From assembly GCA_021735685.1 (NCBI GenBank), contig JAIPGN010000001.1, positions 111,669-175,668 on the forward strand: 64,000 bases of DNA, given 5' to 3'. How positions within the stretch are numbered: position 1 is the stretch's first letter; each line of letters opens with the position of its first letter. The translations under genes and the position numbers were made by a program. This document shows, piece by piece, positions 467 through 48,973 of the stretch. The DNA is from Patescibacteria group bacterium. Lineage in GTDB: Bacteria; Patescibacteriota; Patescibacteriia; UBA2591; UBA6264. The notes under the pieces were generated by a model. It searched no databases, was not told the DNA's origin, and worked only from the letters and a program-made list of their open reading frames with translations.

Positions 467-1807
467 ATGGATCATTTTTTAAAAAAAATTGTTAATCTTT
501 GCAAAAGGCGAGGCTTTGTCTTTCCTTCTTCTGAAATTTATGGTGGCTTTGAAAGTTGCTATGATTATGGCTTTTTGGGCACACTGTTAATTAATAATAT
601 TAAGCAAGAATGGTGGAAATCAATGACTCAGTATCGTGATGATGTAGTGGGTCTAGATGCAAGTATTTTAATGGCTCCGCAAGTTTGGAAAGCTTCTGGT
701 CACTTAACCGCTGGCTTTAGTGACGCTTTAGTAGAATGTAAAAAGTGTCATCATCGTTTTCGTTTAGATTATTTATCAGAAAATAAATGTCCAGATTGCG
801 GAGGAGAATTAACTCCGGAAAAGAAATTTAATTTAATGATGAAAACTTTTGTCGGTTCTGCAGAAAATGAAGCTGCTGTCACTTTTCTGCGAGGAGAAAC
901 TTGTCAAGGGATTTACATGAATTATCGTTCTCTAAGAGATAGCTTGCGTCTTAAGGTTCCTTTTGGGATTGCTCAAATAGGTAAGGCCTTTCGTAATGAA
1001 ATTAGCCCACGTTATTTTATTTTTAAAACTAGAGAATTTGAACAAATGGAAATGCAATATTTTGTTTCACCTCAACCCGAAAAGAAAGATCAATGGTTTA
1101 ATTATTGGAAAGAGGAGCGCTTAAATTGGTATTTAGGATTAGGGGTTAAAAAGGAAAATTTGCGTTTCCGGAAACATGCTGAAGACGAATTAGCTCATTA
1201 CGCCCAAAAGGCATTGGACTTGGAATACAAGTTTCCTTGGGGTTGGGACGAAATAGAGGGGATTCATGATCGAGGAGATTGGGATTTATCTAATCATAGT
1301 CGACATAGTGGGCAAGACTTAAGCTATCTTGATCCACAAACTAACGAAAGATTTATTCCTCATGTTATCGAAACCTCGGCTGGAGTGGCTCGTTCTTTTT
1401 TGGTTTTTATGGCGGAAGCTTATACGGAAATAGAGGGAGGAAGAACGGTTACTACTAAATCTAATAAGGAGAAAGAAGTTTTTTTGAGCTTTGACCCTCG
1501 TTTAGCGCCTATTAAAATAGCAATTTTGCCTTTAAGCAAGAAAGAGCCTTTAGTAAATTTGGCTCGCGAGATTCAAAAAAAATTAAGACAAAATTGGATG
1601 ACTCAGTATGACCAAAGCTCTTCTATCGGTCGTCGTTATCGTCGTCAAGATGAAATTGGTACTCCTTATTGCTTGACCGTTGACTTTGATAGTTTAGAAG
1701 ATAAAAAAGTTACAGTTAGAAGTCGAGACACAATGCAACAAGAAAGAATAGAAATTTCTCAATTAGTTGACTTTTTCAGAAAAAAGATGAACTCAGCTGA
1801 GAATTAA
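467..1807 (+). CDS. glyQS: glycine--tRNA ligase, dimeric class II type
   Basis: 446 aa. The N-terminus 'KRRGFVFPSSEIYGG' and class II motifs (FRNE, 'GIAQIGKAFRNEISP') match alpha2-type GlyRS. A zinc-ribbon-like insertion CxxC...CxxC is present. Confidence 0.9.
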   Translation: MDHFLKKIVNLCKRRGFVFPSSEIYGGFESCYDYGFLGTLLINNIKQEWWKSMTQYRDDVVGLDASILMAPQVWKASGHLTAGFSDALVECKKCHHRFRLDYLSENKCPDCGGELTPEKKFNLMMKTFVGSAENEAAVTFLRGETCQGIYMNYRSLRDSLRLKVPFGIAQIGKAFRNEISPRYFIFKTREFEQMEMQYFVSPQPEKKDQWFNYWKEERLNWYLGLGVKKENLRFRKHAEDELAHYAQKALDLEYKFPWGWDEIEGIHDRGDWDLSNHSRHSGQDLSYLDPQTNERFIPHVIETSAGVARSFLVFMAEAYTEIEGGRTVTTKSNKEKEVFLSFDPRLAPIKIAILPLSKKEPLVNLAREIQKKLRQNWMTQYDQSSSIGRRYRRQDEIGTPYCLTVDFDSLEDKKVTVRSRDTMQQERIEISQLVDFFRKKMNSAEN

Positions 1808-1911
1808 AAAAACGGGCGTTTTTTCGCCATTTTTAAAAAATGGGGCGGAAGTTAGCTCGGAGAGCGACTTCTGCGCCGAAAAAAAAGGGGGACTGTCCCC
1901 GATAAAAAAAT
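1808..1911. repeat. ~100-nt mosaic repeat element (copy A) ending in the palindrome GGGGGACTGTCCCC (1887-1900), followed by an A-run
   Basis: Direct homology (~75% identity by eye) to 26909-27023. It shares the blocks AACGGGC..TTTYTCGCCA..AAAAAA..GGCGG..hairpin..CTGCG..AAAAA-GGGGACTGTCCCCG-TAAAAAAAT. It sits between the glyQS stop and the M16 peptidase start. Confidence 0.55.
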
Positions 1912-3189
1912 ATGTTGGAGAAAAATTTAGCTAATGGTTTAAAATTAATTAAAGTCCCCTTAAAAAACACCAAAACAACTACTGTTTTGGTGCTTTTGCC
2001 TGTGGGCTCTCGTTACGAAGGTCCGGAATTGTATGGTGCCTCTCATTTTATTGAGCACCTGATGTTTAAAGGGACCAAAAAGAGACCCAATAATTTAAAG
2101 ATTGCTCGTGTTTTAGATGCTATTGGCGCTCAATTTAATGCTTTTACTTCCAAGGATCACACTGGTTATTGGATTAAATCGGCAGCTGATAAGGTAGAAA
2201 CTAGCTTTGACCTTCTCTCTGATATGCTTTTTCATTCGCTTTTTCATTCAAAGGATTTTCAACAAGAAAAGGGAGTGATTGTTGAAGAAATTAAAATGTA
2301 TCAAGAGAATCCTTTGTTTTATATTGAAGATTTTTTCGAACAAACTCTCTACAATGGTCATTCTTTGGGAAGAACAATTAGTGGGCGGAGCACAGATGTT
2401 CGAAAGATGAAATTATCTAAATTATTGAATTATAAAAATAAATTTTATCAACCTGGGCAAATGGTCGTGGCAGTGGCTGGACAAATAGACCAGAAGCAGA
2501 TAAATAGTTTAGTGAAAAAATATTTTTTTCCTCAGGAATCTCAAAAAAAGAAGCAGAATCAGTATTCAGCTTTTTCTGCTCCTTCAAACCCAAAAACAAA
2601 GGTTAAAATTTTGCGGAGAAAAATTAATCAAGCGCAAATTGCTTTGGGAGGATTGGGTTGCGCTTATCATGATCAACGCCTAGAAGCTTTAATGCTTCTT
2701 CTTATCATCTTAGGAGGGAATATGAGCTCTCGTCTTTTTAACGAAGTTCGAGTTAAGAGAGGTTTAGCTTATTTTGTTAAAGCCGACCTCGATCTTTATC
2801 AAGATGTCGGAAGTTATTCTATTAGGGCGGGAGTAGACAAAAATAAGGTCTTAGAGACCTTAGAAGTAATTGCTACGGAGTTGCACCGAGTCAAAAAATA
2901 TGGAGTTAGTTCTTCAGAGCTCAAAAGAGCTCAGGATTATTTTCAAGGGACAATGCTCCTTTCTTTGGAAGATCCTTCTTTGTTGGCTTCTTGGTATGCG
3001 AAGCAAGCTCTTTTTTCTTTGGAGAAAATTACTCCAGCTCAAAGGATTAAAAAAATTAAAAAAGTTAAAGCTGAGGAAATTCAAGATTTAGCTAATCATT
3101 TTTTTCAAAAAAGTAAAATTAATCTAGCTTTGATTGGCCCTTTTCAGAATCCAAAACCCTTCTTGCGGGTTTTAGAGAATAAAGTATAA
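1912..3189 (+). CDS. M16 family zinc peptidase (insulinase/pitrilysin-like)
   Basis: 425 aa. The inverted zinc motif HxxEH ('HFIEHLMFKGT') is near the N-terminus, and two M16 domains are present. Confidence 0.8.
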   Translation: MLEKNLANGLKLIKVPLKNTKTTTVLVLLPVGSRYEGPELYGASHFIEHLMFKGTKKRPNNLKIARVLDAIGAQFNAFTSKDHTGYWIKSAADKVETSFDLLSDMLFHSLFHSKDFQQEKGVIVEEIKMYQENPLFYIEDFFEQTLYNGHSLGRTISGRSTDVRKMKLSKLLNYKNKFYQPGQMVVAVAGQIDQKQINSLVKKYFFPQESQKKKQNQYSAFSAPSNPKTKVKILRRKINQAQIALGGLGCAYHDQRLEALMLLLIILGGNMSSRLFNEVRVKRGLAYFVKADLDLYQDVGSYSIRAGVDKNKVLETLEVIATELHRVKKYGVSSSELKRAQDYFQGTMLLSLEDPSLLASWYAKQALFSLEKITPAQRIKKIKKVKAEEIQDLANHFFQKSKINLALIGPFQNPKPFLRVLENKV

Positions 3190-25713: not shown

Positions 25714-26190
25714 TTAGAGGCCTTTAATTTTAATTATTCTTTCTGATTCTTGGTGGCCATTCTCTATTTTAACAGAAATATGATCTTCTGGCAAAATGTT
25801 TTTAATTTTTTCAGCCCACTCAATTATGGTAATAGTTTCTTTTTGCCTTAAGAAATCAAGGGCTCCAATAGCCATCAACTCTTCTTCAGAATTAAGACGA
25901 TAGGCATCAATGTGACAAAAGTTTTTCAGATTTTTATTCGAAGAAAGGGGGTAAATTTTCATTAAAGTAAAAGTAGGACTATTGACGTTTTTTTTAATTT
26001 TAAGTCCCTGGGCAATTCCTTGAGCAAAGACAGTTTTTCCTGCTCCGAGATTTCCGTGTAAAGCTAAAACATCTCCTCCTTTTAACTTCAGAGCCGTTTT
26101 TTTAGCCAGTTTAATAGTTTCTTGAGGGGAATGACTCTGGAAATTGACGTTTTCTTTTTTTTCTTTTTTCATATTTTTTAAAATTAGCAC
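25714..26190 (-). CDS. tsaE: tRNA threonylcarbamoyladenosine biosynthesis protein TsaE
   Basis: 158 aa. The P-loop 'LHGNLGAGKTVFAQG' is present, and the size is typical of YjeE/TsaE. Confidence 0.8.
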   Translation of the reverse strand: MLILKNMKKEKKENVNFQSHSPQETIKLAKKTALKLKGGDVLALHGNLGAGKTVFAQGIAQGLKIKKNVNSPTFTLMKIYPLSSNKNLKNFCHIDAYRLNSEEELMAIGALDFLRQKETITIIEWAEKIKNILPEDHISVKIENGHQESERIIKIKGL

Positions 26191-26201
26191 ATTTTATTAA
26201 A

Positions 26202-26216
26202 AGGGGACAGTCCCCC
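26202..26216. repeat. REP-like palindrome GGGGACAGTCCCCCC, inverted orientation relative to the copies at 1887 and 26994
   Basis: A perfect 6+6 palindrome around a central A/T. It lies in the divergent gap between tsaE(-) and the RAYT gene(+). A second hairpin CCTGACtgcttGTCAGG is adjacent. Confidence 0.5.
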
Positions 26217-26314
26217 CTGACTGCTTGTCAGGATGCTACTCCAATAGTATAATATAAGGCAGAAAATACGATTTGGCGAAAAATCAGCAAAAAATATTTT
26301 TTAGAATTTATTTT

Positions 26315-26908
26315 ATGCCAAGAAAAGCTCGTAAATATATTGATTACCGAGAAACAATTTATCACGTTGTTTGCCGTGGCAATAATCAAAAGAAAATTTT
26401 TTCAGGAGTTCGAGATTATAAAAAATTATTAAGTATTATTAGAGAAACCAAAAAGAAAATGCCTTTTTGGTTTTATTCTTATAGTTTTTTGCCCAATCAT
26501 TTTCATTTATTGATTGAAACTCGCGATTTTTCTCTCTCTAAGATTGTGGGACGAATTAATTTTTTGTACGCAGTTTATTTTAATCACCGTCATCATCGCT
26601 CGGGGCATCTTTTTCAGGACAGGTTTTACAGCAGTGTAATCAACAAAGAGGATTATTTTTGGACCGTTAGCTGTTATATTGACCTAAACCCAGTTCGGGC
26701 CAAAATAGTTATTTTGCCAGAAAATCATCGCTGGGGAAGTTTCAAAATTTATAAAGAAAAGATTATTAAGGATGATTTGATTGACAGAAATAAATTTTTA
26801 TCTTATATTGGAAGAAAAGGCCCAGAAGAATGTCGTCAGGAATATTTAAATTTTGTGCAAGGAAAAATTATCTCTGATGATAAAAAAATTCTTACCTTTC
26901 TTAATTGA
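26315..26908 (+). CDS. IS200/IS605-family Y1 (HuH) transposase-like protein, RAYT-like
   Basis: HuH motif 'HFHLLIE'. The downstream 'YIDLNPVRAKIV' resembles the RAYT 'Y..NPV.AGLV' catalytic-Tyr block. The start was placed at the internal ATG (MPRKARKYIDY...). The track ORF begins 14 codons earlier. Confidence 0.65.
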   Translation: MPRKARKYIDYRETIYHVVCRGNNQKKIFSGVRDYKKLLSIIRETKKKMPFWFYSYSFLPNHFHLLIETRDFSLSKIVGRINFLYAVYFNHRHHRSGHLFQDRFYSSVINKEDYFWTVSCYIDLNPVRAKIVILPENHRWGSFKIYKEKIIKDDLIDRNKFLSYIGRKGPEECRQEYLNFVQGKIISDDKKILTFLN

Positions 26909-27023
26909 TTTTGGAAAACGGGCCATTTCTCGCCAAATTAAAAAAAGAGGCGGGAAATTCGCTTGGGAAGCGGCTGCTGCGTTGCAAAAAGATGGGGACT
27001 GTCCCCGGTAAAAAAATAAAAAT
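26909..27023. repeat. ~100-nt mosaic repeat element (copy B) ending in the palindrome GGGGACTGTCCCC (26994-27006), followed by an A-run
   Basis: Homologous to 1808-1911 (see that feature). It lies directly between the RAYT stop and the korA start. Confidence 0.55.
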
Positions 27024-28718
27024 ATGGAGAAAGATTTTTCAATTATAATCGGAGGGGCAGCTGGACAAGGTTCACGCCGAGCCGGTCTATTAATAGCCAA
27101 GGCTTTTCAGTCTTTAGGCTATTATGTTTTTGTCTATGACGAGTATCAGTCTTTAGTGCGAGGTGGGCATAGTTTTTCTAGCATTAGGGTCTCTTCAACT
27201 AAAAAAAACTCTTCCTCTTCGGAAATAGATTTTTTGATAGCTTTAGATCAGCGAACCTGGGAAGAGCATCGTCATTCTTTAAAAAAAGAAGGTCAAGTTT
27301 TTTACAACCATGATTATTTTCAAATTGAAAAAGAAAAGAGGGCTCAAGGTATTGTTGCTACGCAAATAGTAGAGAAAGAAAAAGGTAAGAAAATTATGGA
27401 AAATATTTCTTTAGTTGCTTTTTTCTTGGGCAGTTTAGGCTTCTCTGAAGAAGCTTTGAAGACTCTTTTTAGAAAAGAATTTAATAAATTCCAAGAAATT
27501 AATTTAAAAATTGCTCAGAAATCTTTTGAAAAAAGTATTTTAATTAAGAAGATTCCTCTTAGAAAGAAAAAACAGGAATTTTCTCTTCTTACTGGCAATC
27601 AAGCTTTGGCTCAGGGAGCAATTAAGGCTGGACTTGAATTTTATTTTGCTTATCCCATGACTCCAGCCACAGGCATTTTGCACTATTTAGCTGGTTCAAC
27701 GGGAAGAAAGGCGGGAATAAAAACAGTTCAAATGGAAAACGAATTAGCTGTTGCTAATGCCGCTCTAGGCAGTGCTTACGCTGGTAAGCCCACTATGTTA
27801 GCCACTTCGGGTGGAGGTTTAGCCTTAATGGGAGAGGCTTTTAGTTTGGGGGTACAAGCGGAAATTCCTTTACTTTTTATTAATAGCCAGAGACCAGCTC
27901 CAGCTAGTGGCGTTCCTACTTACACAGCTCAGGGAGATTTATCCTTTAGTTTAGGATTAGGACATGGAGATATTGTAAAGTTTTTAGTAGCTCCGGGCGA
28001 TGCCGAAGAAGCGGCTTATTGGGCGGGGAAGCTTCTTTCTCTCTCTTGGGAATATCAAACACCTTCTTTACTTTTAATTGATAAGCAAATTTCTGAAAGT
28101 ACTTTTAGTTTTGATCCCGAAATTTTAAAAAAAATTTCTCCAATTCAAATTTTTCCTCAATCAAAAAATAAGAGTCTTAATTATCAAAGGTATGAGATTA
28201 CTAAAAATGGCACTTCTTCTTTAGCTTTTCCGGGTCAAAAAGGAATAGTGGTTAAGGCTAATAGTTATGAGCATCTAGAAAATGGTTTAACTACAGAGCA
28301 AGAAATAGAAATTCAAAAAATGCAAGACAAAAGATTGCGCAAATATCAAGCTATGCAAAAAGTTGTTAACCAAGTTGATGCGGTGAAAGTTTATGGTAAC
28401 AAAAAATCTTCTCAAGCTATTTTAGTTTGGGGCTCAACTAAAGGTCCAGCCCGAGAAGTGGCAGAAGAATTAAAGATTAAAATGATTCAACCTTTATTTT
28501 TGGAACCGTTCCCAGAGAAAAGAATTAAAGCTGCTTTGCAAGGGGTTGAGCATTTAGTTTTAATTGAAGGTAATGCTTTGGGGCAATTAGAGGGTCTTTT
28601 AAAATCTTATCAGATTATTCCTCAAGAAAAGATTTTAAAATACAATTCTCGTCCTTTCTTGGCTTCAGAAATTAAAGCTGCTTTAAATAAAATTTACAAA
28701 AATGAGCGATCAAAATAA
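27024..28718 (+). CDS. 2-oxoacid:ferredoxin oxidoreductase, fused gamma-alpha subunit
   Basis: The N-terminal 'IIIGGAAGQGSRRAGLLIAKAF' is the gamma-type domain. 'GNQALAQGAIKAGLEFYFAYPMTPAT' is the alpha POR_N domain. The TPP-binding beta subunit is encoded immediately downstream. Confidence 0.8.
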   Translation: MEKDFSIIIGGAAGQGSRRAGLLIAKAFQSLGYYVFVYDEYQSLVRGGHSFSSIRVSSTKKNSSSSEIDFLIALDQRTWEEHRHSLKKEGQVFYNHDYFQIEKEKRAQGIVATQIVEKEKGKKIMENISLVAFFLGSLGFSEEALKTLFRKEFNKFQEINLKIAQKSFEKSILIKKIPLRKKKQEFSLLTGNQALAQGAIKAGLEFYFAYPMTPATGILHYLAGSTGRKAGIKTVQMENELAVANAALGSAYAGKPTMLATSGGGLALMGEAFSLGVQAEIPLLFINSQRPAPASGVPTYTAQGDLSFSLGLGHGDIVKFLVAPGDAEEAAYWAGKLLSLSWEYQTPSLLLIDKQISESTFSFDPEILKKISPIQIFPQSKNKSLNYQRYEITKNGTSSLAFPGQKGIVVKANSYEHLENGLTTEQEIEIQKMQDKRLRKYQAMQKVVNQVDAVKVYGNKKSSQAILVWGSTKGPAREVAEELKIKMIQPLFLEPFPEKRIKAALQGVEHLVLIEGNALGQLEGLLKSYQIIPQEKILKYNSRPFLASEIKAALNKIYKNERSK

Positions 28719-34324: not shown

Positions 34325-37360
<3,036 letters not shown>

Positions 37361-37409
37361 CTAATTTATCATTTAGTTCATAATTTATTTTTCCTAAGGA
37401 CAATAGAAT

Positions 37410-37518
37410 TCTGGTGATTCTGCCGGGGAGGAAACACCTGTTCCCATCCCGAACACAGAAGTTAAGCTCCCTAGGGCCGATGGTAGTCTTTAAGGCGAGA
37501 GTAGGTAATCGCCAGAAT
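37410..37518 (+). rRNA. rrf: 5S ribosomal RNA
   Basis: 'TCTGGTGATTCTGCCGGGGAGGAAACACCTGTTCCCATCCCGAACACAGAAGTTAAGC...GAGAGTAGGTAATCGCCAGAA' shows the conserved 5S blocks. Helix I ends pair. Confidence 0.85.
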
Positions 37519-47446: not shown

Positions 47447-48832
47447 ATGAATCTTGATTTTTTAACTAATCAGTATCTTCTTTTATTTTATCTGGAACAA
47501 GGTATTTATTATTTTGTTCGTTTTTTTTTCGGTTATGGAATTTGGATTCTTTTGACCCTTTTTATTTTAAGGATTTTTTGGAAACGTTGGACCAAAAAAA
47601 ACAAAAAAAAATATTTAGCTCAACAAAAATATGTACTTTTGGGTATCATCATGCCAAAGTATAATGAACAGGGACCAGAAACTCTAGAAAGATTTTTTGC
47701 TCACTTGTCAGGCATTAGAGAAAAATTCAGTTGGTGGGCGAAGAAAATTGAAGGAAAAACCCAGCTTAAGATATCTTTAGAAATAGTTAGTTTTGGTGGT
47801 AAGGTGCAATTTTTTATTCACACCCCAGTACAGTTTCAAGATTTAGTAGAATCTGCTATTTATACTTGTTATCCTTTTTTAGAAATTTTTGAGGCGCAGG
47901 AAGATTATGCCGTTAAGACGCAAGAGAAGTTTAATGAAGGAGAGGTAGATATCTGGGGAGCAGATTTGCATTTAGCAGAAAAAAATCCTATCCCTATTAG
48001 CACCTATCTTCAATTTGAACATAAATTAAGCAAAGAGTTAAAAGATCCTTTAACTGATTTATTAGAAATTTTGGGGAGAATGAGGGAAGGAGAAGAAGCT
48101 TGGGTTCAGTATGTAATTAGTCCCATTGATTCAGGTCTAAAAAAAGAGGGAGAGGGCATGATCGCCGATCTTTTGGCTGGCAAAAAGAGCAATAGTGGCA
48201 AAAATAATATTATTGACAAAATTGTTGCTGGATTAATGAAATTGTCCCAAGATGCGGTTGAGTTTATTAAGAATGTTTTTGACTTGCATCCCACCACTGA
48301 CGAATTTGAAGACAAGAAGAAGGGGGATTCGAAAACTTCTTCTGTTGACAAGCGTTTAATTGAAGCTATTCAAAACAAAATAGCAAAAATAGCTTTTCGG
48401 GCTGTAGTCCGCATAGTTTATGTAGCAGAAAGAGAAATTTTCGTCAAAAATAAAGGGTCAGTAAGTTTATTTAGTTCTTTTAATTCTTTTCAATCCATGA
48501 ACCTTAATAGGTTTAAAAAATCTTCTTGGGCTAAGGTTTCCAAGGGTGATTGGAACAAAAACAAGGTTTTAAATTTAAAAAAAGCTAAACTTTTGAAGAC
48601 TTACCAAAAAAGAGACTTTTCCTGGCGGGTGAGAACAGGCTTACCTAAAATAATAGATGACGTTAAGAAGTTTTTGGCTATCTCTGGATCTTCTCCTGAA
48701 GAAAAAACTATTTTAAATATTGAAGAACTCGCAACCCTTTATCATTTTCCAACCGATATTACCAAGTCTTCTGCCATCAGAAAGAGTACTGGCAAAAAAG
48801 CTGAATCGCCAACCGATTTACCAGTAGGTTAA
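47447..48832 (+). CDS. hypothetical protein with N-terminal membrane anchor
   Basis: 461 aa. The N-terminal ~45 aa are hydrophobic (1-2 TM) and the rest is hydrophilic and K/E-rich. No family recognised. Confidence 0.4.
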   Translation: MNLDFLTNQYLLLFYLEQGIYYFVRFFFGYGIWILLTLFILRIFWKRWTKKNKKKYLAQQKYVLLGIIMPKYNEQGPETLERFFAHLSGIREKFSWWAKKIEGKTQLKISLEIVSFGGKVQFFIHTPVQFQDLVESAIYTCYPFLEIFEAQEDYAVKTQEKFNEGEVDIWGADLHLAEKNPIPISTYLQFEHKLSKELKDPLTDLLEILGRMREGEEAWVQYVISPIDSGLKKEGEGMIADLLAGKKSNSGKNNIIDKIVAGLMKLSQDAVEFIKNVFDLHPTTDEFEDKKKGDSKTSSVDKRLIEAIQNKIAKIAFRAVVRIVYVAEREIFVKNKGSVSLFSSFNSFQSMNLNRFKKSSWAKVSKGDWNKNKVLNLKKAKLLKTYQKRDFSWRVRTGLPKIIDDVKKFLAISGSSPEEKTILNIEELATLYHFPTDITKSSAIRKSTGKKAESPTDLPVG

Positions 48833-48973
48833 GTAGAGTTAAAAAAATGTTAAAAAATTGACATTTTTCAAAAATTACCTCTAAAAACCTTTCCTTGATT
48901 GGTTTTTAGAGAAGCAGTTTTTGGGGTCTGGCCCCATTTGAAAAATTAAAATTTGGTTTGTTTATTTGATTAT

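Follow-up and report, generated by a model that had tools for sequence, protein, structure and literature searches.

A REP/REPIN-like extragenic repeat family, probably with a cognate RAYT transposase, in Patescibacteria

The DNA analysed is a 64-kb stretch of a Patescibacteria group bacterium contig (the window), to which a 19-kb Logan contig is identical. Four members of one repeat family were found in it with an HMM built from 59 members and a covariance model (CM), both derived from relatives; cmsearch was run on the window with the filters off, the next CM match had 15 bits, and neither model picked up anything further above noise. Copy A (1802-1910, plus strand; nhmmer E 2.8e-8, CM 63.6 bits) stands alone between glyS and an M16 peptidase gene, filling the 104-nt gap from the TAA (1805-1807) of the class II tRNA synthetase gene (glycyl-tRNA synthetase, 467-1807) to the ATG (1912) of the peptidase gene (1912-3189). 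It includes a 5' block, AAAAACGGGCGTTTTTTCGCCA, at about 1808-1829, a variable spacer, and the palindrome GGGGACTGTCCCC at 1888-1900, 11 nt short of the ATG. Copy B (26908-27016, plus strand; nhmmer E 3e-14, CM 63.5 bits) fills the 115-nt gap before korA (27024-28718), bounded by a TGA at 26906-26908 and the ATG at 27024, with the 5' block AAAACGGGCCATTTCTCGCCAAAT at 26916-26939 and the palindrome GGGGACTGTCCCC at 26994-27006, 17 nt from the korA start. Copy B is also the downstream flank of a gene for a RAYT-type Y1/HUH tyrosine transposase (26315-26908, plus strand, 197 aa, MPRKARKY...). The upstream flank of this gene has an inverted copy (26193-26301, minus strand; nhmmer E 1.1e-16, CM 80.4 bits) with the palindrome GGGGACWGTCCCC in the opposite orientation at 26203-26215, either 12 nt (GTG) or 29 nt (ATG) from the start of the divergent tsaE. 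Its block TGGCGA (26274-26279) is 58 nt from the palindrome, as in copies A and B, and its diverged spacer contains a promoter-like TTGTCA-17-TATAAT (26225-26253, plus strand) aimed into the RAYT gene. The fourth copy (48847-48945, plus strand; nhmmer E 6e-6; CM 49.9 bits, E 1.4e-8) is a decayed solo element, absent from the training set of the HMM and the CM, placed between an ORF at 47447-48832 and a TP_methylase gene. It has lost the GCCAAAT block by a 10-nt deletion, and its hairpin is the variant GGGGTCTGGCCCC (48923-48935), in which an A-U pair became U-G with the CUG loop kept, and which ends 17 nt before a TTG at 48953.

The original prediction, a repeat of about 100 nt present twice, each time between a stop codon and the next start and ending 10-20 nt before that start, is borne out for the sites of copies A and B; the count of two is too low, since the covariance-model search that it proposed for further copies adds the inverted copy and the fourth copy. 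It had also missed that the ORF just upstream of copy B is the Y1 (IS200-like/RAYT) transposase, which made the observation incomplete. Copies A and B (1808-1911 and 26915-27017) are 77.7% identical over 103 nt (blastn E 9e-19), a similarity that, judged by sequence comparison, is far above chance. MAFFT aligns the two with almost no gaps, and AACGGGC, TCGCCA and GGGGACTGTCCCC are equally spaced in both, by 6 nt and 58 nt. The 14-mer GGGGACTGTCCCCG has seven matches in the window at up to 3 mismatches, against 0.7 expected from shuffles. The genes downstream of the four copies (M16 peptidase, korA, tsaE and TP_methylase) are mutually unrelated. In each of the four copies, the distance from the hairpin end to a start codon on the same strand is 11-17 nt (1888-1912, 26190-26215, 26994-27024 and 48923-48953), a spacing that is not general in the wider family and that may be due to chance among co-directional genes or to a local orientation bias, such as the direction of replication. 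The window also contains a 23S-5S rRNA pair (34325-37517) and no 16S gene; the 23S gene has 3041 nt against the 2925 positions of the model, its insertions including ones of 62 and 23 nt, and the ORFs called inside it (35736-36134 and 36610-36981) are spurious.

The likely start of the RAYT gene is the ATG at 26315, and its product is exactly GenBank MCF7906794.1, recorded as 'transposase [Patescibacteria group bacterium]'. The catalytic motifs are NHFHLL for the HUH motif and YIDLNPVRA for the tyrosine motif. The ORF matches Pfam Y1_Tnp (E 7e-15), and against NCBIfam it reaches 62 bits for REP_Tyr_transpos (cut-off 80) and 20.6 bits for IS200 (cut-off 55). A phmmer search of PDB with the single sequence was uninformative; a profile of 29 homologues matched E. 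coli TnpA-REP (4ER8) at 1.3e-8 and ISDra2 TnpA at 0.16, with both catalytic motifs aligned. The AlphaFold model (pLDDT 88) had 4ER8 as its top Foldseek match (E 2e-8, target TM 0.70), with IS608 and ISDra2 TnpA at about 5e-5, so that by profile and predicted fold the best match of the ORF is E. coli TnpA-REP. The gene sits between two units in inverted orientation (inverted repeats I1 and I8 of the window), whose hairpins are on the outside. It lies between tsaE and korAB in the window, in the 93%-identical strain L193 and in the relatives L080-L082, where it is found within a syntenic leuS-tsaE ... korAB-tsaD neighborhood, which fits vertical inheritance.

In the RAYT protein cluster (P0121, P0364-P0370), eight of 12 members at least 90% identical are on Logan contigs of 914-931 nt, a length close to that of the RAYT gene plus its two flanking units, which suggests that assemblers break at the flanking repeats. 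Most genes of the window are without a Shine-Dalgarno sequence and have AT-rich leaders, and in several a TATAAT-like hexamer precedes the ATG by 5-10 nt, a hint that mRNAs of this organism may lack leaders or have very short ones. It could be speculated that the TTGCCA block serves as a -35 box and that the RAYT start is leaderless.

The repeat belongs to a family that extends well beyond the window. A metagenome scan with the pattern GGGGACWGTCCCC-N52-60-TTTGGCRA gave 114 matches at 106 loci, and the spacer was exactly 56 nt in 62 of the 114, all of them in contigs of 29-42% GC; the matches with other spacer lengths are scattered, mainly in high-GC contigs, and look like chance. The family unit, of about 95-100 nt, consists of a 5' block (TTTTGGTCAATTTTTTGCCAAAT or AAAACGGGCG..TTGCCAAAT) ending in TT(C)GCCAAAT, a spacer of 56 nt with variable sequence, and the terminal perfect palindrome GGGGAC-W-GTCCCC (GGGGACWGTCCCC). 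True members have about 15 conserved bases beyond the search pattern, either TTTTGGTCAATTTTTT before GCCAAAT or AAAAAAACGGGCGAAATTTT, the latter being the version of the subfamily that contains copies A and B.

The family is linked to the RAYT gene in the relatives as well. All nine close RAYT orthologues examined (L079, L080, L081, L082, L104, L135, L140, L150 and L153) are bracketed by the units in the same way, as is that of L193; the bracket was seen on both sides in L079-L082, L135, L140 and L193 and on the visible side only in L104, L150 and L153. The RAYT proteins of these bracket-sharing relatives are 58-97% identical to that of the window, and strains L079 and L193 keep orthologous copies of both RAYT flanks (26193-26301 and 26908-27016). 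Solo copies are extragenic and occur at non-orthologous sites in the relatives, for example in L080 before leuS and after korB, with up to 3-4 copies per short contig, compared with the two solo copies in the 64-kb window. Their orientation is mixed. Of roughly 62 solo members, 18 have the hairpin end next to the start of a gene and 27 next to the end of one; the neighbor of the 5' block is a gene start in 23 and a gene end in 13. Twelve copies are within called ORFs. Therefore, no leader-like rule emerges, and the suggestion that the copies always abut gene starts does not hold for the family.

Copy A is absent from the orthologous glyS-M16 gap of the relatives L072, L075 and L078. In the closest of these relatives (M16 protein 81% identical), the gap is 59 nt of unrelated AT-rich sequence, and in those with about 64% identity it is 10-19 nt; no family element was found in about 50 kb of these relatives. 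The element-free gaps indicate that copy A is an insertion in the lineage of the window. Pairs of copies within a genome are 74-99% identical (74-78% for A and B, 79% for an L080 solo copy and the RAYT flank, 99% for the L084 pair), and each solo copy is most like the RAYT right-flank copy of its own genome, whereas spacer identity between genomes is about 47%. Such likeness within a genome would be expected if the RAYT-adjacent unit were copied intragenomically. In the flank profiles, no target-site motif or duplication was found, with a weak bias for T-T and then A-rich sequence 3' of the hairpin, and no transposition event or filled/empty-site pair was captured among the loci compared.

Taking these observations together, it is most likely that the repeat is a REP-type mobile repeat and not a gene-control element, leader or riboswitch, and here it is proposed that it is probably a REP/REPIN-like non-autonomous DNA element with a cognate RAYT, forming a Patescibacteria family. 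A REP/BIME-like mobile repeat was one of the readings offered in the original prediction, and it is the one that the dispersed extragenic family and the inverted copies bracketing the RAYT gene in every close orthologue examined support. REPIN-RAYT systems have been described as units of about 100 bp, in which a variable spacer accompanies a palindrome of about 14 bp, together with a flanked RAYT in single copy (bioRxiv 10.1101/2021.07.10.451892). As in the REPIN-RAYT systems of Pseudomonas and enterobacteria (Bertels and Rainey), the present family has extragenic repeats about 100 nt long, each with a variable spacer and with a palindrome (about 13-14 nt) in its conserved ends, units that flank an apparently single RAYT gene at the same locus in related genomes, and copies that are more alike within a genome than between genomes. 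Unlike in those systems, the spacer has a fixed length of 56 nt, the genome is the reduced one of a Patescibacteria bacterium, and the visible copy number is low. The repeat also departs from the textbook REP/REPIN in its architecture, since a REPIN is formed by two inverted REPs making one long hairpin, whereas the unit in the window is asymmetric, with one short, perfect and GC-rich palindrome at the 3' end, a 5' block that is AT-rich and unrelated to it, and no inverted REP pair.

The E. coli REP/BIME system with its TnpA-REP (4ER8) provides the closest solved enzyme, with the HUH and Y-x-x-x-N-P-V motifs aligned, and there too the palindromes flank the enzyme gene in inverted orientation. 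E. coli REPs, as Ton-Hoang (2012) and Messing (2012) are said to have reported, are about 35 nt long, imperfectly palindromic and tagged with GTAG on the 5' side; in contrast, the palindrome of the window family is a perfect 13-mer (6+1+6), and no GTAG is found by the hairpin in the family profile. The RAYT of the window also differs from TnpA-REP in a C-terminal helical extension of about 55 residues, and the identity between the two is only about 21%.

A different account, which is considered improbable, would take the Y1 gene and its flanks as an ordinary autonomous insertion sequence of the IS200/IS605 type, with the solo copies as decayed ends or a derived MITE (PATE-like). IS200/IS605 elements and PATEs have in common with the present system the Y1 HUH superfamily, the recognition of sub-terminal hairpins and the existence of short non-autonomous derivatives, and such an origin would agree with the Pfam Y1_Tnp match of the gene, its NCBIfam RAYT score under the cut-off, the size of the bracketed unit (about 825 bp, near that of IS200), and the many homologues on very short contigs, as for a multi-copy IS. 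However, TnpA-REP is much nearer to the enzyme than the IS transposases in both the profile and the fold comparisons given above. IS200/IS605 elements are multi-copy, move as a whole and have two ends that are not inverted repeats of each other, whereas the flanks here are inverted repeats of about 100 nt and the gene appears to be single-copy and syntenic, with one copy per locus, the exact protein on one contig, and the same neighborhood kept in relatives whose proteins are 58-97% identical. Correia/NEMIS, BOX, RUP and ERIC elements are also similar to the repeat in length (about 100-150 nt), in filling intergenic gaps and in the possible hairpins beside gene starts; they either bear the marks of DDE transposases (terminal inverted repeats and target duplications) or have no known enzyme, and, to our knowledge, none of them is tied to a Y1 transposase or shares the sequence of the window repeat.

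The original prediction had also considered a shared cis-regulatory leader and a transcript-stabilizing 5' structure, and had taken the compensatory changes in an internal hairpin to argue for selection on secondary structure. The one or two compensatory changes are real for the pair of copies A and B and are not general across the family. In RNAalifold on 50 members, the terminal hairpin alone was predicted, and this 13-nt palindrome is the sole invariant structure, its invariance being partly forced by the search pattern. A candidate central helix, columns 48-55 against 63-70, has 66% of its cells paired, which is not above column shuffles of 50 diverse members; overall pairing is 79.1% compared with 78.9% in shuffles, with slid registers beaten. 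Mutual information revealed no helix, its signal being dominated by subfamily, and no long-range helix was found within the unit. On either strand, the folding z-scores of the spacers have means of -0.5 to -0.9. Between the window and strain L193, substitutions in the internal stems weaken the pairing rather than compensate. The covariation check thus gave nothing convincing in the internal hairpins, and selection on secondary structure is not upheld; judging from the alignments, the constrained features are the two end blocks and the distance between them.

A role of the element as a regulatory RNA leader, riboswitch or 5' stabilizer of the downstream genes is regarded as very improbable. The position of the four window hairpins before start codons, the good folding of copy A as RNA (z -4.2) and the compensatory changes in the A/B pair speak for such a role, but copy B (z -1.65) folds no better than shuffles, and covariation does not exceed column composition. 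Searches of Rfam, at gathering thresholds on the whole window and at permissive E-values on 1700-2000, returned only noise. Relatives lack the element before their orthologous M16 gene, the genes downstream of the window copies have unrelated functions, and the orientations are mixed, with the hairpin end facing gene ends more often than starts and some copies inside called ORFs. The lack of an Rfam match, the element-free gap, the unrelated genes and the mixed orientations count against both the leader and the transcript-stabilizing structure. Terminator-like hairpins are present on the minus strand of copies A and B, their T-runs not being conserved across the family, and inspection by eye for an outward promoter near the hairpin end gave nothing convincing; any effect on neighboring genes, as terminator-like or mRNA hairpins, would be secondary. 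A one-off local duplication of a promoter/terminator cassette, for which these terminator-like hairpins could speak, is ruled out by the family from the metagenome scan, with about 60 further members in many contigs and samples and a constant link to the transposase gene.

For the REP/REPIN-like element with its cognate RAYT, a mechanism can be proposed by analogy with TnpA-REP and IS200/IS605 TnpA, in which hairpin recognition, strand cleavage and strand transfer are established; on this analogy, we infer that the repeat is mobilized by the RAYT. The two inverted units, copy B being the downstream one, bracket a single RAYT gene, and the enzyme would recognize the palindrome as a single-stranded DNA hairpin, for instance at replication forks, nick and rejoin the hairpin DNA, and thereby spread copies of the unit into AT-rich intergenic DNA. 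The two solo copies, A and that at 48847-48945, would have arisen in this lineage from the RAYT-adjacent unit. The 5' block and its rigid 56-nt spacing suggest a second contact or cleavage site at a fixed geometry. In a compact genome, one unit fills a whole intergenic gap, which accounts for the wedged appearance of the copies between stop and start codons.

The palindrome is also observed outside this lineage. Many high-GC genomes from unrelated phyla have GGGGACWGTCCCC as a REP-like repeat that occurs in clusters (L004:4012-4218, L043:2166-2390, L047, L067, L017 and others), among them Gaiellaceae, Kiritimatiellae, Planctomycetota, Burkholderiales and Actinomycetota, and at least 2 copies of the GGGACWGTCCC core occur within 8 kb in 34 of 70 loci, which had been fetched by a chance-prone pattern. 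That pattern, AACGGGC-N60-80-GGGGACTGTCCCC, used in a scan of GTDB, gave 70 chance matches in high-GC genomes and no full-length relative. A literature search with the palindrome sequence returned only unrelated eukaryotic papers. In two higher-GC contigs (L174:2060-2200 and L148:3904-3990), TTTGCCAAA and the palindrome lie side by side in an inverted doublet that is symmetric and REPIN-like, TTTGCCAAAAAAAGGGGACAGTCCCC ... GGGGACTGTCCCCTTTTTTTGGCAAA. The 5' block may therefore predate the Patescibacteria lineage in whose unit it occurs, the match in these two contigs being partly forced by the search pattern.

RAYT homologues were compared outside Patescibacteria at four loci (L057:6929-7662, L192:449-1225, L189:2970-3690 and L191:1815-2575). 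Planctomycete RAYTs that are 25-31% identical to that of the window are flanked by inverted doublets of GGGGACWGTCCCC (L057 and L192), and at L189 the palindrome arms are split around the RAYT gene as GGGGACATTCTA-[gene]-TAGAATGTCCCC. A Dongiaceae RAYT homologue has the variant GGGACAGACCC / GGGTCTGTCCC. More distant Y1/RAYT paralogues have different flanking palindromes, namely GTTGAAGTCGGACTTCAAC at L149:1700-2700, a TTAACC..GGTTAAC-type at L154:6800-7800 and the long GGGGTCAGATCCGAAATGA at L114:1-1400. Two of these three loci are Patescibacteria-like contigs that also bear the element, which suggests several RAYT/repeat pairs, possibly within one genome. Different palindromes beside distant paralogues are the pattern expected of RAYT-REP pairs and, with the GGGGACWGTCCCC flanks of the planctomycete genes, lend indirect support to enzyme-hairpin specificity.

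At about 16 independent loci, both low- and high-GC, a tandem duplication, perfect or nearly so, comes after the palindrome. Its unit starts at the loop base or the 3' arm and consists of (W)GTCCCC with 5-18 nt of flanking sequence, as in GGGGAC|AGTCCCCTTTAATAA|AGTCCCCTTTAATAA. These loci include L154:4301-4345, L161:63-115, L149 (minus strand, near 87), L132, L133, L125, L046, L100 and L112; none of the four window copies has such a duplication. From their sequence, the duplications look like the footprint of nicking in the hairpin loop. E. coli TnpA-REP cuts beside the hairpin, from which a nick in the loop (GGGGAC^W) would differ. As a tentative and rather doubtful extension, there could be an undescribed multi-phylum RAYT lineage, with GGGGAC/GTCCCC arms by the RAYTs in Patescibacteria and Planctomycetota, a variant of them in an alphaproteobacterium, and the arms as clustered repeats in numerous further phyla; in Patescibacteria this lineage would drive an asymmetric unit of about 100 nt with a rigid 56 nt between two protein-contact blocks and would nick the loop at GGGGAC^W.

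RAYTs have been discussed mainly in gammaproteobacteria, and REPINs are estimated to occur in about 10% of bacteria (bioRxiv 10.1101/2021.07.10.451892); within the library searched, no paper was found that links RAYTs or REPINs to Patescibacteria. For genome annotation, the repeat accounts for GC-rich hairpins near start codons, which can be mistaken for riboswitches, and for assembly breaks around a gene labelled 'transposase'. The asymmetric unit of fixed geometry and the identical 13-nt palindrome by distant RAYTs are concrete substrates for biochemistry. A partnership of a RAYT and its repeat in an ultra-small, streamlined genome would bear on whether such elements are tolerated parasites or are kept for a reason.
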